Source: a virus
Lineage: Duplodnaviria > Heunggongvirae > Uroviricota > Caudoviricetes
Strand: one strand, 5' to 3'
Length of the DNA stretch: 6,413 nucleotides
Virus record (IMG/VR): IMGVR_UViG_2778261509_000013
The translations under genes and the position numbers were made by a program. The notes under the pieces are model-generated. The model searched no databases and was not told the DNA's origin. It saw only the letters and a list, made by a program, of their open reading frames with translations. Below, one piece after another: positions 1-6,413 of this stretch. The first letter of the stretch is position 1; every line of letters begins with the position of its first letter.

Positions 1-1005
1 TTAATCCCCCGTGGACACTGCGTGGACACTTACGCCACCTTTCAGCGGATTAAGGGCCACCGCATCCTGCAGGTAATCCGGTGCAAAATGCGCATATGCC
101 ATTGTTTGCTGAATGGTTGCGTGACCAAGAATCTTCTGAAGCGCAATAATGTTTCCTCCGTTCATCACAAAATGGCTGGCGAACGTATGCCGCAGCACAT
201 GTGCAGCCTGGCCTTTTGGTAAATCGGGCTTAACTCTTTTCAGCGCCAGGCAGAATTCCCGGTACTTCACCTCAAACAAGCCGCCTGTTTCTCTGGTTTT
301 GATCGCCTCACAAACTGCCTGCGAAATTGGCACTGTTCTCTTCCGGCCATTTTTGGTTTCAAGAAACGTTACACGGTTATGAACTATCTGTTCACCACGA
401 AGCTTACAAGCTTCACTCCAGCGCGCCCCTGTGCTTAAACACAAAAGCGCAACACGCCAGTAGTCGCCCTCCAGTGTATCGAGCAATAGCGCCACTTCCT
501 TCTGTGACAGGAACGCCATTTCTCGTGGAGATACATAAAGAATAGAAATTCCCCTTACTGGATGTTCTGCATCCCAAAGACCTATTTTTTTCAGCACGGT
601 AAACATTCCGGATAACCGATTCATGTACCTGTTAGCAGATGACGGTTTCAATCCTTCAGCTATCTTTTGAGAACGCCACGCGATAATTTTCAGCTTATCA
701 AGATCCACAGCCTGCATATCAGCGCCAAGCTCATTGATTATGTTGCGCAGTTGTTTTCGGTCTTCTTCCGCCTTACGCCTGTGCTGGCCGTGATACATCC
801 ACCACAACTCAAGCAAATCATTTAGCGTTCGACGATCACGGTAGCCCTGTATATATTCCCGCTTTTCAGCGTTCGCCATGATGTAGCGTTCAGTGGCCAC
901 CGCTACCGATTTTTTGTCAAATACCTTACGCACGCGCTTTCCCTTGCGTCCGTTCGGCCTGATGTCCAGCAAATAACGACCATCTTCGAGCTTCTTAATC
1001 GACAT
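1..1005 (-). CDS. int: Tyrosine recombinase / phage integrase (P2 Int-like), complete; stop codon at 1..3
   Basis: The 339-aa minus ORF contains tyrosine-recombinase motifs: a box I arginine (LSTGARWSE), HVLRHTFAS (HxxR), and GH...TMAYAHF with the catalytic Tyr near the C-terminus. The N-terminus MSIKKLEDGRYLLDIRPNGRKGKR resembles P2-family integrases (recalled, not searched). The ORF track starts at TTG 1018..1020; the in-frame ATG at 1003..1005 is preferred because a GGAGGG Shine-Dalgarno lies about 7 nt upstream on the minus strand. Confidence 0.9.
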   Translation of the reverse strand: MSIKKLEDGRYLLDIRPNGRKGKRVRKVFDKKSVAVATERYIMANAEKREYIQGYRDRRTLNDLLELWWMYHGQHRRKAEEDRKQLRNIINELGADMQAVDLDKLKIIAWRSQKIAEGLKPSSANRYMNRLSGMFTVLKKIGLWDAEHPVRGISILYVSPREMAFLSQKEVALLLDTLEGDYWRVALLCLSTGARWSEACKLRGEQIVHNRVTFLETKNGRKRTVPISQAVCEAIKTRETGGLFEVKYREFCLALKRVKPDLPKGQAAHVLRHTFASHFVMNGGNIIALQKILGHATIQQTMAYAHFAPDYLQDAVALNPLKGGVSVHAVSTGD

Positions 1006-1101
1006 TACGAAGCCCTCCAATGAACCGCTCTACAATTTCTCCAGCCTCTTTCCAGCAATAATCAGACCAGACAAAAAGCAGGTCTAACCAGTTTTCTGGC
1101 C

Positions 1102-1422
1102 TCAGCGGGATAATTTTTGGATTGTTTCGGTTGAAACGCGATCTCCCTCCGAATTGCAGGAACCATCAAGAGAGAGAGCCGGAGAAATTTGCCCGACCTC
1201 CGGCATCGTTTCATCTGTTGATAACCAATAAGCATACTTCTTAAATTTAGGGTGTTTCGTAACCTTAAGTAAGGCACCCTCTGTTACTTGCTTCCCCCTC
1301 ACCTCATAGTTAGTTACCGTCCCATAAGGCAGCCCAACACAATCCGCAAACTCCTGGCGGGTCATACCTTCTGCTTCACGAATCAGGCGAAATTTTTCAC
1401 CCATGCTTGACAAAGATGCCAT
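1102..1422 (-). CDS. C: Phage immunity repressor, P2 C-like helix-turn-helix protein (~106 aa)
   Basis: The translation has an HTH segment (MTRQEFADCVGLPYGTVTNYEVRGKQ) and a C-terminal region (KFKKYAYWLSTDETMPEVGQISPALSLDG) resembling the P2 C repressor as recalled. It sits directly upstream of int on the same strand, as in P2. The ORF track starts at GTG 1474..1476; the ATG at 1420..1422 is preferred because GGAGGA lies about 10 nt upstream on the minus strand. Confidence 0.8.
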   Translation of the reverse strand: MASLSSMGEKFRLIREAEGMTRQEFADCVGLPYGTVTNYEVRGKQVTEGALLKVTKHPKFKKYAYWLSTDETMPEVGQISPALSLDGSCNSEGDRVSTETIQKLSR

Positions 1423-1535
1423 ATCGGGCATATCCTCCATCGCAACATGCCACATCGGGCACAAACATAAAAACACTCAAATAAGCCGATATAAGCCATT
1501 TTGAGCCATTCGAACGAATTAGGGAGATTACCACA
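1423..1535. promoter_or_regulatory. Divergent promoter/operator switch region between C (leftward) and cox (rightward); includes three tandem 10-bp repeats at 1481..1510
   Basis: A 113-bp AT-rich gap separates two divergently transcribed regulator genes. Three contiguous 10-bp repeats (ATAAGCCGAT / ATAAGCCATT / TTGAGCCATT) lie 26..55 bp upstream of the cox ATG. P2-type C repressors are known to bind direct repeats. The -35/-10 hexamers could not be placed confidently by eye. Confidence 0.5.
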
Positions 1536-1823
1536 ATGAGCGAATCAGAGCTTGGGGGGTTCATTCAGGTAGCACCATATCCACTTGAAGCGGTGCCATA
1601 TCAACTATTCGCCAAGATGATCGGCCGCAAGGAATCCACAGTCAGAACCATGATTGACGCAGCAAAGCTACCGACAATTGACTTTGTGAAACCAGGTTCA
1701 GTAAAGACGCGTGCATCAGAAAACTGGGTATATCTGCCAGCATTTAACGAAGGCATGCGCAAAGCGTTTTTTGAGCAACCGAAAGAACGCCGCGACGCAT
1801 GGTTGTTGTGGCTGGGACTTTAG
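1536..1823 (+). CDS. cox: Cox-like excisionase/transcriptional regulator (95 aa)
   Basis: The translation ends ...RRDAWLLWLGL and contains AVPYQLFAKMIGRKESTVRTMIDAAKLP and NWVYLPAFNEG, resembling P2 Cox (recalled motifs PYQEFAKLIG, YWVYLPAWN, WLMWLGL). A GGGAGA Shine-Dalgarno lies 8 nt upstream of the ATG. It is the first gene of the rightward operon, opposite C. Confidence 0.85.
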   Translation: MSESELGGFIQVAPYPLEAVPYQLFAKMIGRKESTVRTMIDAAKLPTIDFVKPGSVKTRASENWVYLPAFNEGMRKAFFEQPKERRDAWLLWLGL

Positions 1824-4828: not shown

Positions 4829-4849
4829 GAAACCAGAGCATGCACACAC

Positions 4850-4878
4850 AAAAAAACCGCTTGCCATGCCGCAATCGG
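4850..4878 (-). terminator. Possible intrinsic terminator on the minus strand (imperfect hairpin plus U7)
   Basis: The minus strand reads CCGATTGC-GGCATG-GCAAGCGG followed by TTTTTTT (plus-strand A-run 4850..4856). The 8-bp stem has one mismatch. No minus-strand gene is evident upstream of it. Confidence 0.3.
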
Positions 4879-4950
4879 TCAGGTTACATTTCCGCTGCAC
4901 CTTATAAAACGGGTGCCGGGATTCTCAACCCGATACAGAGCAAAGCGCAT

Positions 4951-4972
4951 AACCGCGCCAGCGGTTTTTTTG
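4951..4972 (+). terminator. Rho-independent terminator-like hairpin plus T-tract on the operon strand
   Basis: AACCGC-GCCA-GCGGTT followed by a 7-T run (4965..4971), about 125 nt downstream of the 4529..4828 stop. Confidence 0.55.
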
Positions 4973-4983
4973 TGCGTACTGTA

Positions 4984-5012
4984 TTGCCACGTCTTTTTCG
5001 CGTCAGAATTAT
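4984..5012 (+). promoter_or_regulatory. Candidate sigma70-type internal promoter (TTGCCA-17 bp-AATTAT)
   Basis: The -35 TTGCCA (4984..4989) matches consensus at 5 of 6 positions, the spacer is 17 bp, and the -10 AATTAT (5007..5012) matches at 4 of 6. It lies just downstream of the terminator and upstream of the stable hairpin. By-eye match only. Confidence 0.3.
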
Positions 5013-5026
5013 GGCGGGGCGTACGG

Positions 5027-5045
5027 GGCCGACTTCGGTCGGGCC
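5027..5045 (+). other. Stable stem-loop with a C(UUCG)G tetraloop (GGCCGAC-TTCG-GTCGG(G)CC)
   Basis: Read directly: 5-bp perfect stem ccgac/gtcgg closing a TTCG loop (5034..5037), extended by 2 bp across a 1-nt bulge. There is no clean T-tract after it, so it is unlikely to be a terminator. Confidence 0.5.
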
Positions 5046-5064
5046 GGATTCTTTGCTCTCCGGT

Positions 5065-5105
5065 GTTGAGAACCCTGTACGTCTCGCCACCCCGAGATTC
5101 TCAAC
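5065..5105. repeat. Inverted repeat GTTGAGAA-N25-TTCTCAAC upstream of the 5151 gene; related motif copies at 4921..4945 and 5051..5058
   Basis: Perfect 8-bp arms at 5065..5072 and 5098..5105. The motif ATTCTCAAC also occurs at 4921..4929. A second motif, GAGCAAAG, occurs at 4938..4945 and 5133..5140, with its reverse complement CTTTGCTC at 5051..5058. Confidence 0.5.
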
Positions 5106-5150
5106 TCTGGATGGTGAGTTATTTCTATCACCGAGCAAAGAGGCCACACC

Positions 5151-5381
5151 ATGGCAAACCGCAAACAGCACCGCGCTATCGCGGAGCGTCGTCACATCCA
5201 GACTGAAATCAACCGCAGACTTTCCCGCGCATCACGCGTCGCGCAAATCATGCACATCAATATGTTGCATGAGCGCAGCCACGCACTATCAAACATTTAT
5301 TCCGCCTCTGTTTTCAGCTATCTGGCGGATGATCTGCACGAGCTTCAACAGCTCATCCAGCAGCAAAACAAACTCCATTAA
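5151..5381 (+). CDS. Hypothetical small basic protein, 76 aa (MANRKQHRAIAERRHIQTEINRRLSR...)
   Basis: AAAGAGG lies 7 nt upstream of the ATG. The Arg/Lys/His-rich N-terminus suggests nucleic-acid binding (inference). Confidence 0.55.
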   Translation: MANRKQHRAIAERRHIQTEINRRLSRASRVAQIMHINMLHERSHALSNIYSASVFSYLADDLHELQQLIQQQNKLH

Positions 5382-5453
5382 TTCCTGTTCCGGGCCTTTC
5401 CTGCACCTTGCGGCGGGAGGCCTTCGCACATCTGTAACAAGAGGATTGCCGCA

Positions 5454-5819
5454 ATGATTCTCGCCAACGACTTTCTTGAATACCTGCTCAACACAGAGCG
5501 TGATCTTGCCGCTCGCGTACGTGATCGTTATGACATGTATCTGAAATCCCTGCCTGTACCGCAGCTCGCTGACGGAAAGATTGTTATTGATGGTCGCTAC
5601 ATGATTGACAGCCACGAGGGAAATTACAGGCTTTACCGCATTGAAGGTGGCACCCCGTCCGTTATTGGCATTTACCAGCGCCCATCCTCTGCAATCGTCG
5701 ATGTGATTGCCGACAGCATCCGCATCACACATCGCCATGCCGACACAGAAGACACCGTGCTGGAAATTCAGCGGCTGGCTGCCGTCTGCCGCGACACCCT
5801 GAATGGCATGACGAAGTAA
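5454..5819 (+). CDS. Hypothetical protein, 121 aa
   Basis: AAGAGGA lies 9 nt upstream of the ATG; it ends 6 nt before the replication gene start. Confidence 0.6.
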   Translation: MILANDFLEYLLNTERDLAARVRDRYDMYLKSLPVPQLADGKIVIDGRYMIDSHEGNYRLYRIEGGTPSVIGIYQRPSSAIVDVIADSIRITHRHADTEDTVLEIQRLAAVCRDTLNGMTK

Positions 5820-5825
5820 ATCACT

Positions 5826-6413
5826 ATGACGGCAGAGTACATCAGGGACTGGCAACAACCGCGCCACGCAGTGGGACGTGAAGGAACGGGGATCCCCGTT
5901 CCTGAATCCGCGCTTTCCTCCTGGCTGGATGCCTACCGGGCAGAGAACGAGCGCCGCCAGGAAATGGCTGATGCGGCGTTCTCCGCCACGCCGCTGGGCA
6001 ACCTGATTAATAAAAGCCTGGATGCACAGGAAAAACAGGACAAAACCATCACACTGGCAGGAGACGCCAGAAAACAGGTACGCGGTGCGGTGGATGAAGC
6101 CATGGCCTCGCTGCGCCTGCTGCCGTCCTATCTGCGCGATCCGCTTATTCGCCACCTCTCCTTCCTGCGCAAAAAACAGGAAGCCGATCGCCGGAAAGGC
6201 AAAAAGAGCTGGCAGGCTGAACGCTACGCGCGCGGAACCCTGCGCAAAATATTCGAACGTCTGGACCGCACCGACCACCGCTGGCTGACACCGGGTTATC
6301 GCTCCCTTGCCGGACGCGAACGCCTGGATGATTTGCTTTACCTGCCGCAGCTCAACAAGCACCAGATACAGACGCTGGCCACCATGACGGCGGCGATGTT
6401 CAGCAGCACCTTC
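5826..6413 (+). CDS. A: Replication initiation protein, P2/186 gpA-like (rolling-circle endonuclease family), 5' partial; runs off the window end
   Basis: Hand translation from ATG 5826 is open to the window end (196 codons, no stop): MTAEYIRDWQQPRHAVGREG...LLPSYLRDPLIRHLSFLRKKQ...LAGRERLDDLLYLPQLNKHQIQTLATMTAAMFSS. Several segments resemble the N-terminal region of P2 gpA as recalled (PREAVGRER, RLPYFLRSLF, LAERDHYARLPGMNDKELKKFAARISSQLFMMY). The ORF track omits it because there is no stop in the window. Confidence 0.7.
   Translation, partial: MTAEYIRDWQQPRHAVGREGTGIPVPESALSSWLDAYRAENERRQEMADAAFSATPLGNLINKSLDAQEKQDKTITLAGDARKQVRGAVDEAMASLRLLPSYLRDPLIRHLSFLRKKQEADRRKGKKSWQAERYARGTLRKIFERLDRTDHRWLTPGYRSLAGRERLDDLLYLPQLNKHQIQTLATMTAAMFSSTF

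Follow-up and report, generated by a model that had tools for sequence, protein, structure and literature searches.

The immunity factor of phage P4 is an RNA (PMC4825925, PMC3632133), and this CI RNA causes premature transcription termination before the replication gene (PMC4825925). In the literature, the small RNA (sRNA) IsrK is equated with seqA of P4, and the C4 RNA with CI (PMC4825925, PMC3632133). In phages P1 and P7, heteroimmunity rests on allele-specific recognition (PMC12197685). In Gifsy-1, short IsrK activates the antirepressor gene in trans and is itself needed for induction (PMC4825925). The leader open reading frame (ORF) orf45 of Gifsy-1 has its first AUG at nucleotide (nt) 107, just past the IsrK terminator, and overlaps the C4-like RNA STnc1160; its translation is needed for IsrK-dependent expression of anrP (PMC4825925). 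Hfq binding by IsrK, and its action in trans on its own read-through transcript, are known for Gifsy-1 only (PMC4825925). Here we analyse a 322-bp gap between genes (positions 4829-5150) in a DNA stretch of 6,413 nt from the virus record IMGVR_UViG_2778261509_000013 (Caudoviricetes); we will refer to this whole stretch as “the window,” and all positions are counted on it. We consider it highly probable that the gap holds a module for RNA-based immunity and control of an antirepressor, of the type of P1 immI and P4 immunity, in a P2-like (P88/Xuanwuvirus-type) Escherichia coli prophage.

An Rfam search had been proposed in an earlier interpretation made from the letters of the DNA (the “sequence-only reading”), which offered a small RNA locus as one of several explanations for the gap. 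That option turned out to be the correct one, since two curated families match over their full models and above their gathering scores: an isrK-family sRNA (RF01394; 60.5 bits, gathering score 50, E 1.8e-11, model 1-77 of 77, 4897..4971 on the + strand) and a C4-family antisense RNA (RF01695; 78.5 bits, gathering score 45, E 1.1e-14, model 1-87 of 87), the latter starting 35 nt after isrK. The elements of the module are the following:

4861..4890, + strand: candidate promoter of the IsrK-like RNA (P_isrK), with −35 TTGCCA at 4861-4866, an 18-nt spacer and −10 TACATT at 4885-4890 (consensus scan)
4897..4971, + strand: IsrK-like sRNA, equivalent to P4 seqA (Rfam RF01394)
4897-4916, + strand: IsrK hairpin 1, covarying in 16 diverse sequences
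4917-4932, + strand: IsrK hairpin 2, with recognition element a1 (AUUCUCAAC, 4921-4929) in its loop
4937-4945, + strand: recognition element b1, AGAGCAAAG, in the single-stranded linker of IsrK
4951-4966 (stem) and 4967-4973 (U run), + strand: intrinsic terminator (terminator scan)
5007..5094, + strand: C4/CI-type antisense RNA (Rfam RF01695)
5012-5028 / 5073-5089, + strand: basal stem of C4, 17 bp, with an invariant CC on its 3' side
5029-5042, + strand: UUCG hairpin of C4 (predicted fold)
5043-5064, + strand: hairpin 2 of C4, with b' (CUUUGCUCU, 5051-5059) in its loop
5065-5072, + strand: a', GUUGAGAA, in the junction of C4
5097..5105, + strand: a2, AUUCUCAAC, in the mRNA leader, complementary to a' and covarying with a' and a1 in every allele
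5106..5120, + strand: conserved element TCTGGATGGTGAGTT between a2 and b2, resembling the 5' strand of the C4 basal stem (alignments, variant table)
5133-5141 within 5133..5143, + strand: b2, GAGCAAAGA, complementary to b' and overlapping the Shine-Dalgarno sequence AGAGG at 5139-5143
5151..5381, + strand: ORF of 76 amino acids (aa) resembling P4 epsilon (“derepression protein”; Pfam PF25738)

The minimum free energy (MFE) fold of the C4 segment is the family structure (−47.6 kcal/mol, z-score −4.94), and none of 200 shuffled sequences was as stable. The C(UUCG)G hairpin that had already caught the eye in the sequence-only reading belongs to this structure, at 5029-5042. Among 19 diverse C4 sequences, which take in P4 CI, N15, ST64B and phages of Yersinia and Klebsiella, compensatory changes are seen at 16 of the 28 pairs, and hardly any pair is broken; furthermore, the acceptor-like stem is followed by CC in all 19. 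A tRNA-like or acceptor-like stem followed by CC is the expected substrate of RNase P, in keeping with work on P1 and P4. No credible candidate for a promoter of its own was found for C4 when conservation in P2-like and lambdoid relatives was considered, and the RNA is probably cut out of a longer precursor.

The IsrK segment is predicted to fold into two 5' hairpins, a linker and the terminator (z-score −2.84); the intrinsic terminator previously proposed for the gap was recovered by the terminator scan as a stem at 4951-4966 followed by a U run. The segment 4861-4890 is likely the promoter of this RNA, with a start near 4897, where the isrK model begins: both hexamers are invariant among the P2-like relatives although the spacer has many substitutions, lambdoid relatives carry a −10-like TATAGT or TACACT at the position of the −10, and an A7 tract (4850-4856) lies where a proximal UP element would sit. 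A different promoter, at 4984..5012, had been suggested in the sequence-only reading. Its match to the consensus is real (9 of 12 positions), but a function as promoter is supported neither by conservation nor by geometry, and the candidate was rejected: the −35 reads TCGCCA in about 30 related loci, a 12-nt deletion ruins the spacing in lambdoid relatives, and the start would fall within the C4 stem. The segment 4861-4890 is the better candidate promoter, and the conserved one.

The two motifs that the sequence-only reading had noticed in direct and inverted orientation are the classical a/b recognition elements of the C4 RNA family, and they are commoner than in shuffled sequence. The first, ATTCTCAAC, occurs at 4921-4929 and 5097-5105 (two copies against 0.07 expected, a number reached in 0 of 200 shuffles), and GTTGAGAACCC at 5065-5075 is its inverted copy, 91% complementary to 4919-4929; the second, GAGCAAAG, has two copies on the + strand (4938-4945 and 5133-5140) and one on the − strand (5051-5058), making three against 0.30 expected, a number reached in one of 200 shuffles. 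In the alignment of the window with nine P2-like relatives, the region 4846-5165 is almost invariant, barring six patches that are precisely the a/b elements. These patches shift jointly, so that each relative has an a' that matches its own a1 and a2 as their reverse complement, and a b' that does so for b1 and b2; the alleles TTCTCAAC/GTTGAGAA and AGAGCAAAG/CTTTGCTCT of the window, for example, compare with TTTCCAC/GTGGAAA and CAACTACAG/CTGTAGTTG in P88. In this sense, the search for covariation among homologues that had been recommended gave a positive answer for the C4 stem, for IsrK hairpin 1 and for the recognition patches.

The allele survey drew on 120 loci found in viral contigs by scanning for the invariant C4 core, together with previously collected loci, and contains 27 combinations of 20 b' and 9 a' types, with a and b reassorting independently. 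The exact complement of each allele to its own four targets has a median of 9/7/7/9 nt, against a mean of 4.1-4.8 nt across alleles, where matches of at least 8 nt make up 0.3-1.6% of the comparisons; the complementarity between b2 and b' is 8-12 nt long in 27 of 27 alleles. The predicted duplex energies tell the same story, with −25 to −31 kcal/mol for own targets and weaker values for other alleles. All six internal transition mismatches are compatible with G-U pairs on the + (transcribed) strand, and RNA pairing is therefore favoured over a DNA operator array; this wobble signal comes from internal positions only, as a mismatch count that includes the duplex ends is uninformative. The allele pattern is that of P1/P7 heteroimmunity, but with many more types.

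Several side observations concern the same elements. Phage vB_EcoM-569R5 (H1/H70) is 95.8% identical to the window over 1.2 kb and 86.6% identical over the RNA region (4890-5120), and its mismatches cluster in the six recognition patches, a pattern that hints at diversifying selection or at immunity types being recombined. One viral contig (L039, 1195-2052) has a tandem series of three C4 genes and two isrK/c4-a1b1 elements, with a spacing of about 390 nt; the copies differ in their a/b types and form an array of immunity modules. The target motif UUCUCAAC of the window resembles the antisense a' of P4 (UUCUCAC), and a' of the window (GUUGAGAA) resembles the P4 target (GUGAGAA). The P4 CI RNA and the C4 RNA of the window could pair over about 6 nt; the b elements are unrelated, and the likeness is probably a coincidence. 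Besides the a/b elements, the leader contains the conserved TCTGGATGGTGAGTT, whose P4 counterpart GGCGATAGC is the exact complement of the 3' strand of P4's own C4, GCTATCGCC. The comparison suggests that this element could pair with the C4 3' strand in place of the 5' strand of the stem, as an alternative pairing of the precursor that covaries with the stem.

The gene presumed to be under this RNA control is the 76-aa ORF, a putative antirepressor gene judging from its sequence. The protein scores 32.7 bits with Pfam PF25738 (gathering score 27), a model on which P4 epsilon reaches 170 bits, and its alignment with P4 epsilon shows 29% identity over 66 aa (E 4e-9). The ORF is annotated in all relatives, and its variable sites (5151-5378) are distributed 24/21/42 over codon positions 1/2/3. 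An epsilon-like ORF lies directly downstream in about 99 of 109 loci with the C4 scaffold. A 2009 paper reported an epsilon-like gene in Sp13, a P2-like prophage of O157 Sakai, together with an unexpected and unexplained inducibility of Sp13 by mitomycin C (PMC2669165).

Broadly, the module would work as follows. Transcription would begin near 4897 from the conserved promoter at 4861-4890, and most transcripts would end at the intrinsic terminator (4972), giving an IsrK-like RNA of about 75 nt that presents a1 in a loop and b1 in a linker. Transcripts that read through would serve as the precursor from which the C4/CI-type RNA (5007-5094) is released. The b' loop and the a' junction of this RNA would then pair with b2 and a2 in the leader, and the duplex at b2 would hide the Shine-Dalgarno sequence and block translation of the epsilon-like gene. 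Even in cis, the fold predicted for the read-through transcript has a2 and b2 paired, with b2 bound to the loop region of C4. By analogy with P1 and P4, the untranslated leader would favour premature termination and so limit expression of the next gene, orf121, and of gene A, the replication gene. The IsrK-like RNA, with the same target sequences, would act most likely as a competitor or decoy for C4, or else as a target in cis, and the ratio of IsrK to C4 would decide whether the 76-aa protein, which may bind the C repressor, is produced and the prophage derepressed.

Several points weigh against this interpretation. We infer the ends of the RNAs, their processing and the direction of regulation from the DNA. 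As IsrK is an activator in Gifsy-1, acting through a leader ORF, the parts assigned to IsrK and C4 are tentative even where such systems have been studied. The module lies inside the early operon, so that transcripts from the early promoter would cross it, the IsrK terminator included. With regard to the product, the identity of the 76-aa protein to P4 epsilon is no more than 29%, and identical or nearly identical proteins occur in phages whose repressors are only 38-47% identical, so that the C repressor is a presumed target. Finally, no LexA box was found near the module, and the four near-matches elsewhere in the window are within chance expectation. The repressors compared (window 1105-1476, − strand; L002 109-447, − strand; L001 1963-2262, − strand) have in common a conserved C-terminal block, F.KY..W...P..GQI.PAL. 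Provided that the 76-aa protein works as an antirepressor, this common surface may be its target, and the protein may act across heteroimmune P2-like prophages.

Among the alternatives, a cis-acting attenuator or antiterminator concerns the same terminator and a further element of the region:

4844..4864 / 4957-4977, + strand: inverted repeat of 21 nt, 90% complementary, whose right arm covers the loop, the 3' arm and the U run of the terminator

According to this explanation, alternative pairings decide whether transcripts from the early promoter stop at 4951-4972 before gene A, with the 21-nt repeat as an antiterminator for transcripts started upstream. The terminator does separate the early genes from gene A, a long-range helix takes the place of the terminator hairpin in the MFE fold of 4840-4980, the upstream arm of the repeat occurs only in the class of loci embedded in a P2-like operon (92 of 109), and the CI RNA of P4 governs premature termination before a replication gene (PMC4825925). 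A control point ahead of the replication genes, one of the possibilities raised in the sequence-only reading, is plausible by analogy with P4 only. That reading had also proposed that 4916..4947 pairs with 5044..5077 in competition with the terminator. The complementarity is real and covaries in relatives, but it is best taken as antisense recognition (a1/b1 against a'/b'), and competition with the terminator is not supported: a1 and b1 (4921-4945) are clear of the stem at 4951-4966, and the predicted read-through fold keeps the terminator hairpin while the C4 loops pair with the downstream a2 and b2. As for the repeat, its upstream arm pairs with the loop, the 3' arm and the U run, which would emerge too late to compete well against the local 6-bp hairpin; the arm overlaps the A tract and the −35 of P_isrK, and its conservation would follow from this overlap; and variants in 4844-4864 / 4957-4977 are few and show no consistent covariation. 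The repeat could be an antiterminator for upstream-started transcripts or an RNase III-type processing site; the attenuator as a full account of the gap seems to us unlikely.

A Gifsy-1-type activation, which we regard as improbable, would have a leader ORF of 148 codons, from the AUG at 5011, translated with the help of IsrK in trans and coupled to the downstream gene, with C4 not being the main repressor. Gifsy-1 orf45 is a precedent for a translated leader that overlaps a C4-like RNA and is needed for anrP (PMC4825925), and the ORF from 5011 runs precisely to the start of orf121, with an ATGA overlap at 5454. However, the frame from 5011 shows no selective constraint, the equivalent ORF has only 65 codons in one related locus (L010) and ends inside another downstream gene in a second one (L004), and the conserved neighbour is the 76-aa gene, whose own Shine-Dalgarno sequence is overlapped by b2. 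This explanation is partly compatible with an RNA-controlled antirepressor, as IsrK would be an activator in both.

The region can also be read as protein. The sequence-only reading had stated that the gap holds no credible ORF; a coding signature is indeed lacking, although a mechanical ORF of 205 aa (4840..5457) does span it, and this ORF could be taken for a genuine transcriptional regulator of the “Ash family.” The frame is open over 205-207 codons in nine of the nine relatives that keep its start, PGAP/RefSeq labels it “ash family protein” in some genomes, and there are PHROG matches to “transcriptional regulator” (E down to 8e-16) besides a weak match to Pfam Phage_ASH. The latter, at 18.5 bits, is below the gathering score of PF10554 (26), and the residues matched (13-110) coincide with the two RNA genes. 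Codon periodicity is absent: variable sites are distributed 25/29/26 over 4840-5150 and 21/42/24 where the frame runs over the 76-aa gene, with the peak at position 2. Changes of allele rewrite the Ash peptide and keep the RNA complementarity, and PGAP calls of the ORF are inconsistent, being complete, partial or absent among near-identical relatives. Furthermore, the historic “cI” ORF of P4 (L012 8168..8584, − strand) matches Phage_ASH with 59.7 bits over the CI RNA, and its product is now known to be an RNA; in Rac-like and e14-like elements, the “Ash domain” is an in-frame upstream extension of the Rha gene, whose Shine-Dalgarno sequence and ATG lie just after b2. A genuine Ash protein is, in our opinion, very improbable, and the Phage_ASH family (PF10554) looks like a translated RNA locus. 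The N-terminal parts of ORFs labelled “ash family protein” or “Rha family phage regulatory protein” overlap isrK and C4 in two further loci (L005 2452..3300; L006 2141..3304). The “Ash family protein” calls, together with the N-terminal “Ash domain” of some Rha-family proteins, are likely a systematic annotation error. PF10554 has served as the epsilon profile in one paper (PMC8628076), whereas P4 epsilon actually matches PF25738.

Last, the idea that a DNA-binding regulator uses the direct and inverted motifs as operators, also among the options of the sequence-only reading, has next to no probability left: a protein co-evolving with its sites would likewise change all copies together, but the motifs fall precisely on the loops and the junction of two RNA structures backed by covariation and Rfam, only the transcribed strand makes all six internal transition mismatches compatible with wobble pairs, a and b reassort independently as fits two separate RNA duplexes, and the homologous elements of P4 and P1 are established RNA targets (PMC4825925, PMC12197685, PMC3632133).

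The window is the left end of a P2-like prophage, with an integrase gene (1..1020, − strand), a helix-turn-helix repressor gene (1102..1476, − strand) and Cox (1536..1823). The early ORFs are closely packed up to 4828, in agreement with what the letters had suggested and with both the ORF list and the annotation of near-identical relatives; then come the gap, the ORF at 5151..5381, the ORF at 5454..5819 and the replication endonuclease gene from 5826. The identity of this last gene, gene A, with its ATG at 5826, was taken from the annotation of relatives. The gene between the epsilon-like one and gene A is:

5454..5819, + strand: ORF of 121 aa (orf121), with its own Shine-Dalgarno sequence AAGAGG, in PHROG 3237, labelled function unknown

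No similarity was found between orf121 and P4 orf151, and a scan of the window for tRNA and tmRNA genes found none. The nearest phage records are E. coli phages of the P88/Xuanwuvirus type, at about 95% identity. At the level of megablast, the 322-bp gap is present in 1,111 of 5,426 complete E. coli genomes, and O157:H7 genomes have the same region at 99% identity; IsrK-C4 modules as such occur in roughly 1,900 E. coli genomes. A contig scan seeded with the 76-aa protein gave only three close loci, labelled Salmonella, E. albertii and “Vagococcus”; searching viral contigs for the DNA pattern of the invariant C4 core was far more productive. The contig labelled Vagococcus sp., a Firmicute (L015, NZ_JBQPOM010000071.1), has the enterobacterial module with an epsilon-like protein 89% identical, and the assembly may be contaminated or mislabelled.

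With these results, the gap becomes a concrete module of two known sRNAs, their target sites and an epsilon-like antirepressor gene that is probably gated by them, in a common family of E. coli P2-like prophages that includes O157:H7 relatives. It is a candidate explanation for the induction of P2-type prophages, whose repressor is devoid of a self-cleavage domain, and nature provides, in the many matched alleles, a library of orthogonal antisense/target pairs. A broader scenario can be drawn, which we put forward as speculation with rather low odds of being right. P88/Xuanwuvirus-type prophages would have taken up the IsrK-C4-epsilon cassette also used by P4, directly upstream of their replication gene, and gained with it an RNA-gated antirepressor for a P2-type repressor that is normally SOS-insensitive, which could explain the inducibility of Sp13 by mitomycin C. 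The a/b loops, hypervariable and free to reassort, would represent a large set of RNA immunity types (at least 20 for b' and 9 for a') shaped by conflict among helper, satellite and lambdoid elements in one cell, and a single, near-identical epsilon-like protein could derepress many heteroimmune P2-type repressors.

As regards the known systems, P4 shares most with the window. Its seqA matches isrK (60.8 bits) and its CI RNA matches C4 (74.9 bits), and neither their order nor their strand differs; the a/b logic is the same, with an allele of its own (a' UUCUCAC, b' CCUGUGAA); and an epsilon-family antirepressor and then a replication gene follow downstream in the operon. The P4 region is ordered PLE - seqA - CI RNA - seqC - kil/eta - epsilon - orf151 - orf106 - alpha. 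On the other hand, P4 is a satellite and the element of the window a P2-like, helper-type phage. The epsilon-like gene of the window comes straight after b2, whereas in P4 a small kil ORF follows b2 and epsilon lies about 245 nt past the end of CI; the spacer between IsrK and C4 measures 35 nt in the window and 107 nt in P4; and the replication gene is a P2 A-type endonuclease in the former and the alpha primase in the latter.

The immI region of P1 and P7 is ordered a1 b1 - c4 - a2 b2 - icd - ant. The regulated proteins of P1, Icd and Ant1/2, are unrelated to epsilon. P1 is not known to have a terminated IsrK-type sRNA carrying a1/b1. The translation of icd and Rho-dependent polarity in P1 were reportedly studied by Citron and Schuster in 1990 and by Biere et al. 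in 1992. Like the window, P1 and P7 have the Rfam C4 RNA, with duplicate targets upstream and downstream of the antisense loops (PMC12197685), and in the literature b2 is likewise placed at the ribosome-binding site of the first downstream ORF, in an antirepressor pathway.

Gifsy-1 resembles the window in several ways: its IsrK is transcribed from a separate promoter and ends at a leaky terminator, read-through gives a transcript with a C4-like RNA that is processed, and an antirepressor-like gene follows, the promoter, the leakiness and the processing being predicted in the window; the short IsrK of both shares complementarity with the downstream RNA. Gifsy-1 is lambdoid, AnrP belongs to another protein family, and the published mechanism is that of a translated leader ORF with translational coupling, whereas in the window the leader frame is without constraint and the target ORF has its own Shine-Dalgarno sequence under b2. 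N15 also has the isrK and C4 tandem (62.4 and 78.8 bits) with an annotated terminator in between, upstream of gp32, gp31 and gp30, and differs from the window in its downstream genes and phage type. The mechanism of the anti-immunity locus of N15, with its CA RNA and antirepressor genes, is said to have been described by Ravin et al. in 1999. The isrK-C4 tandem also precedes Rha-type antirepressor genes in Rac-like, e14-like and Stx prophages. Placed among these systems, the locus is a further example of a known one (P1 c4 / P4 CI / IsrK), found here in a P2-like phage, and not a new system.

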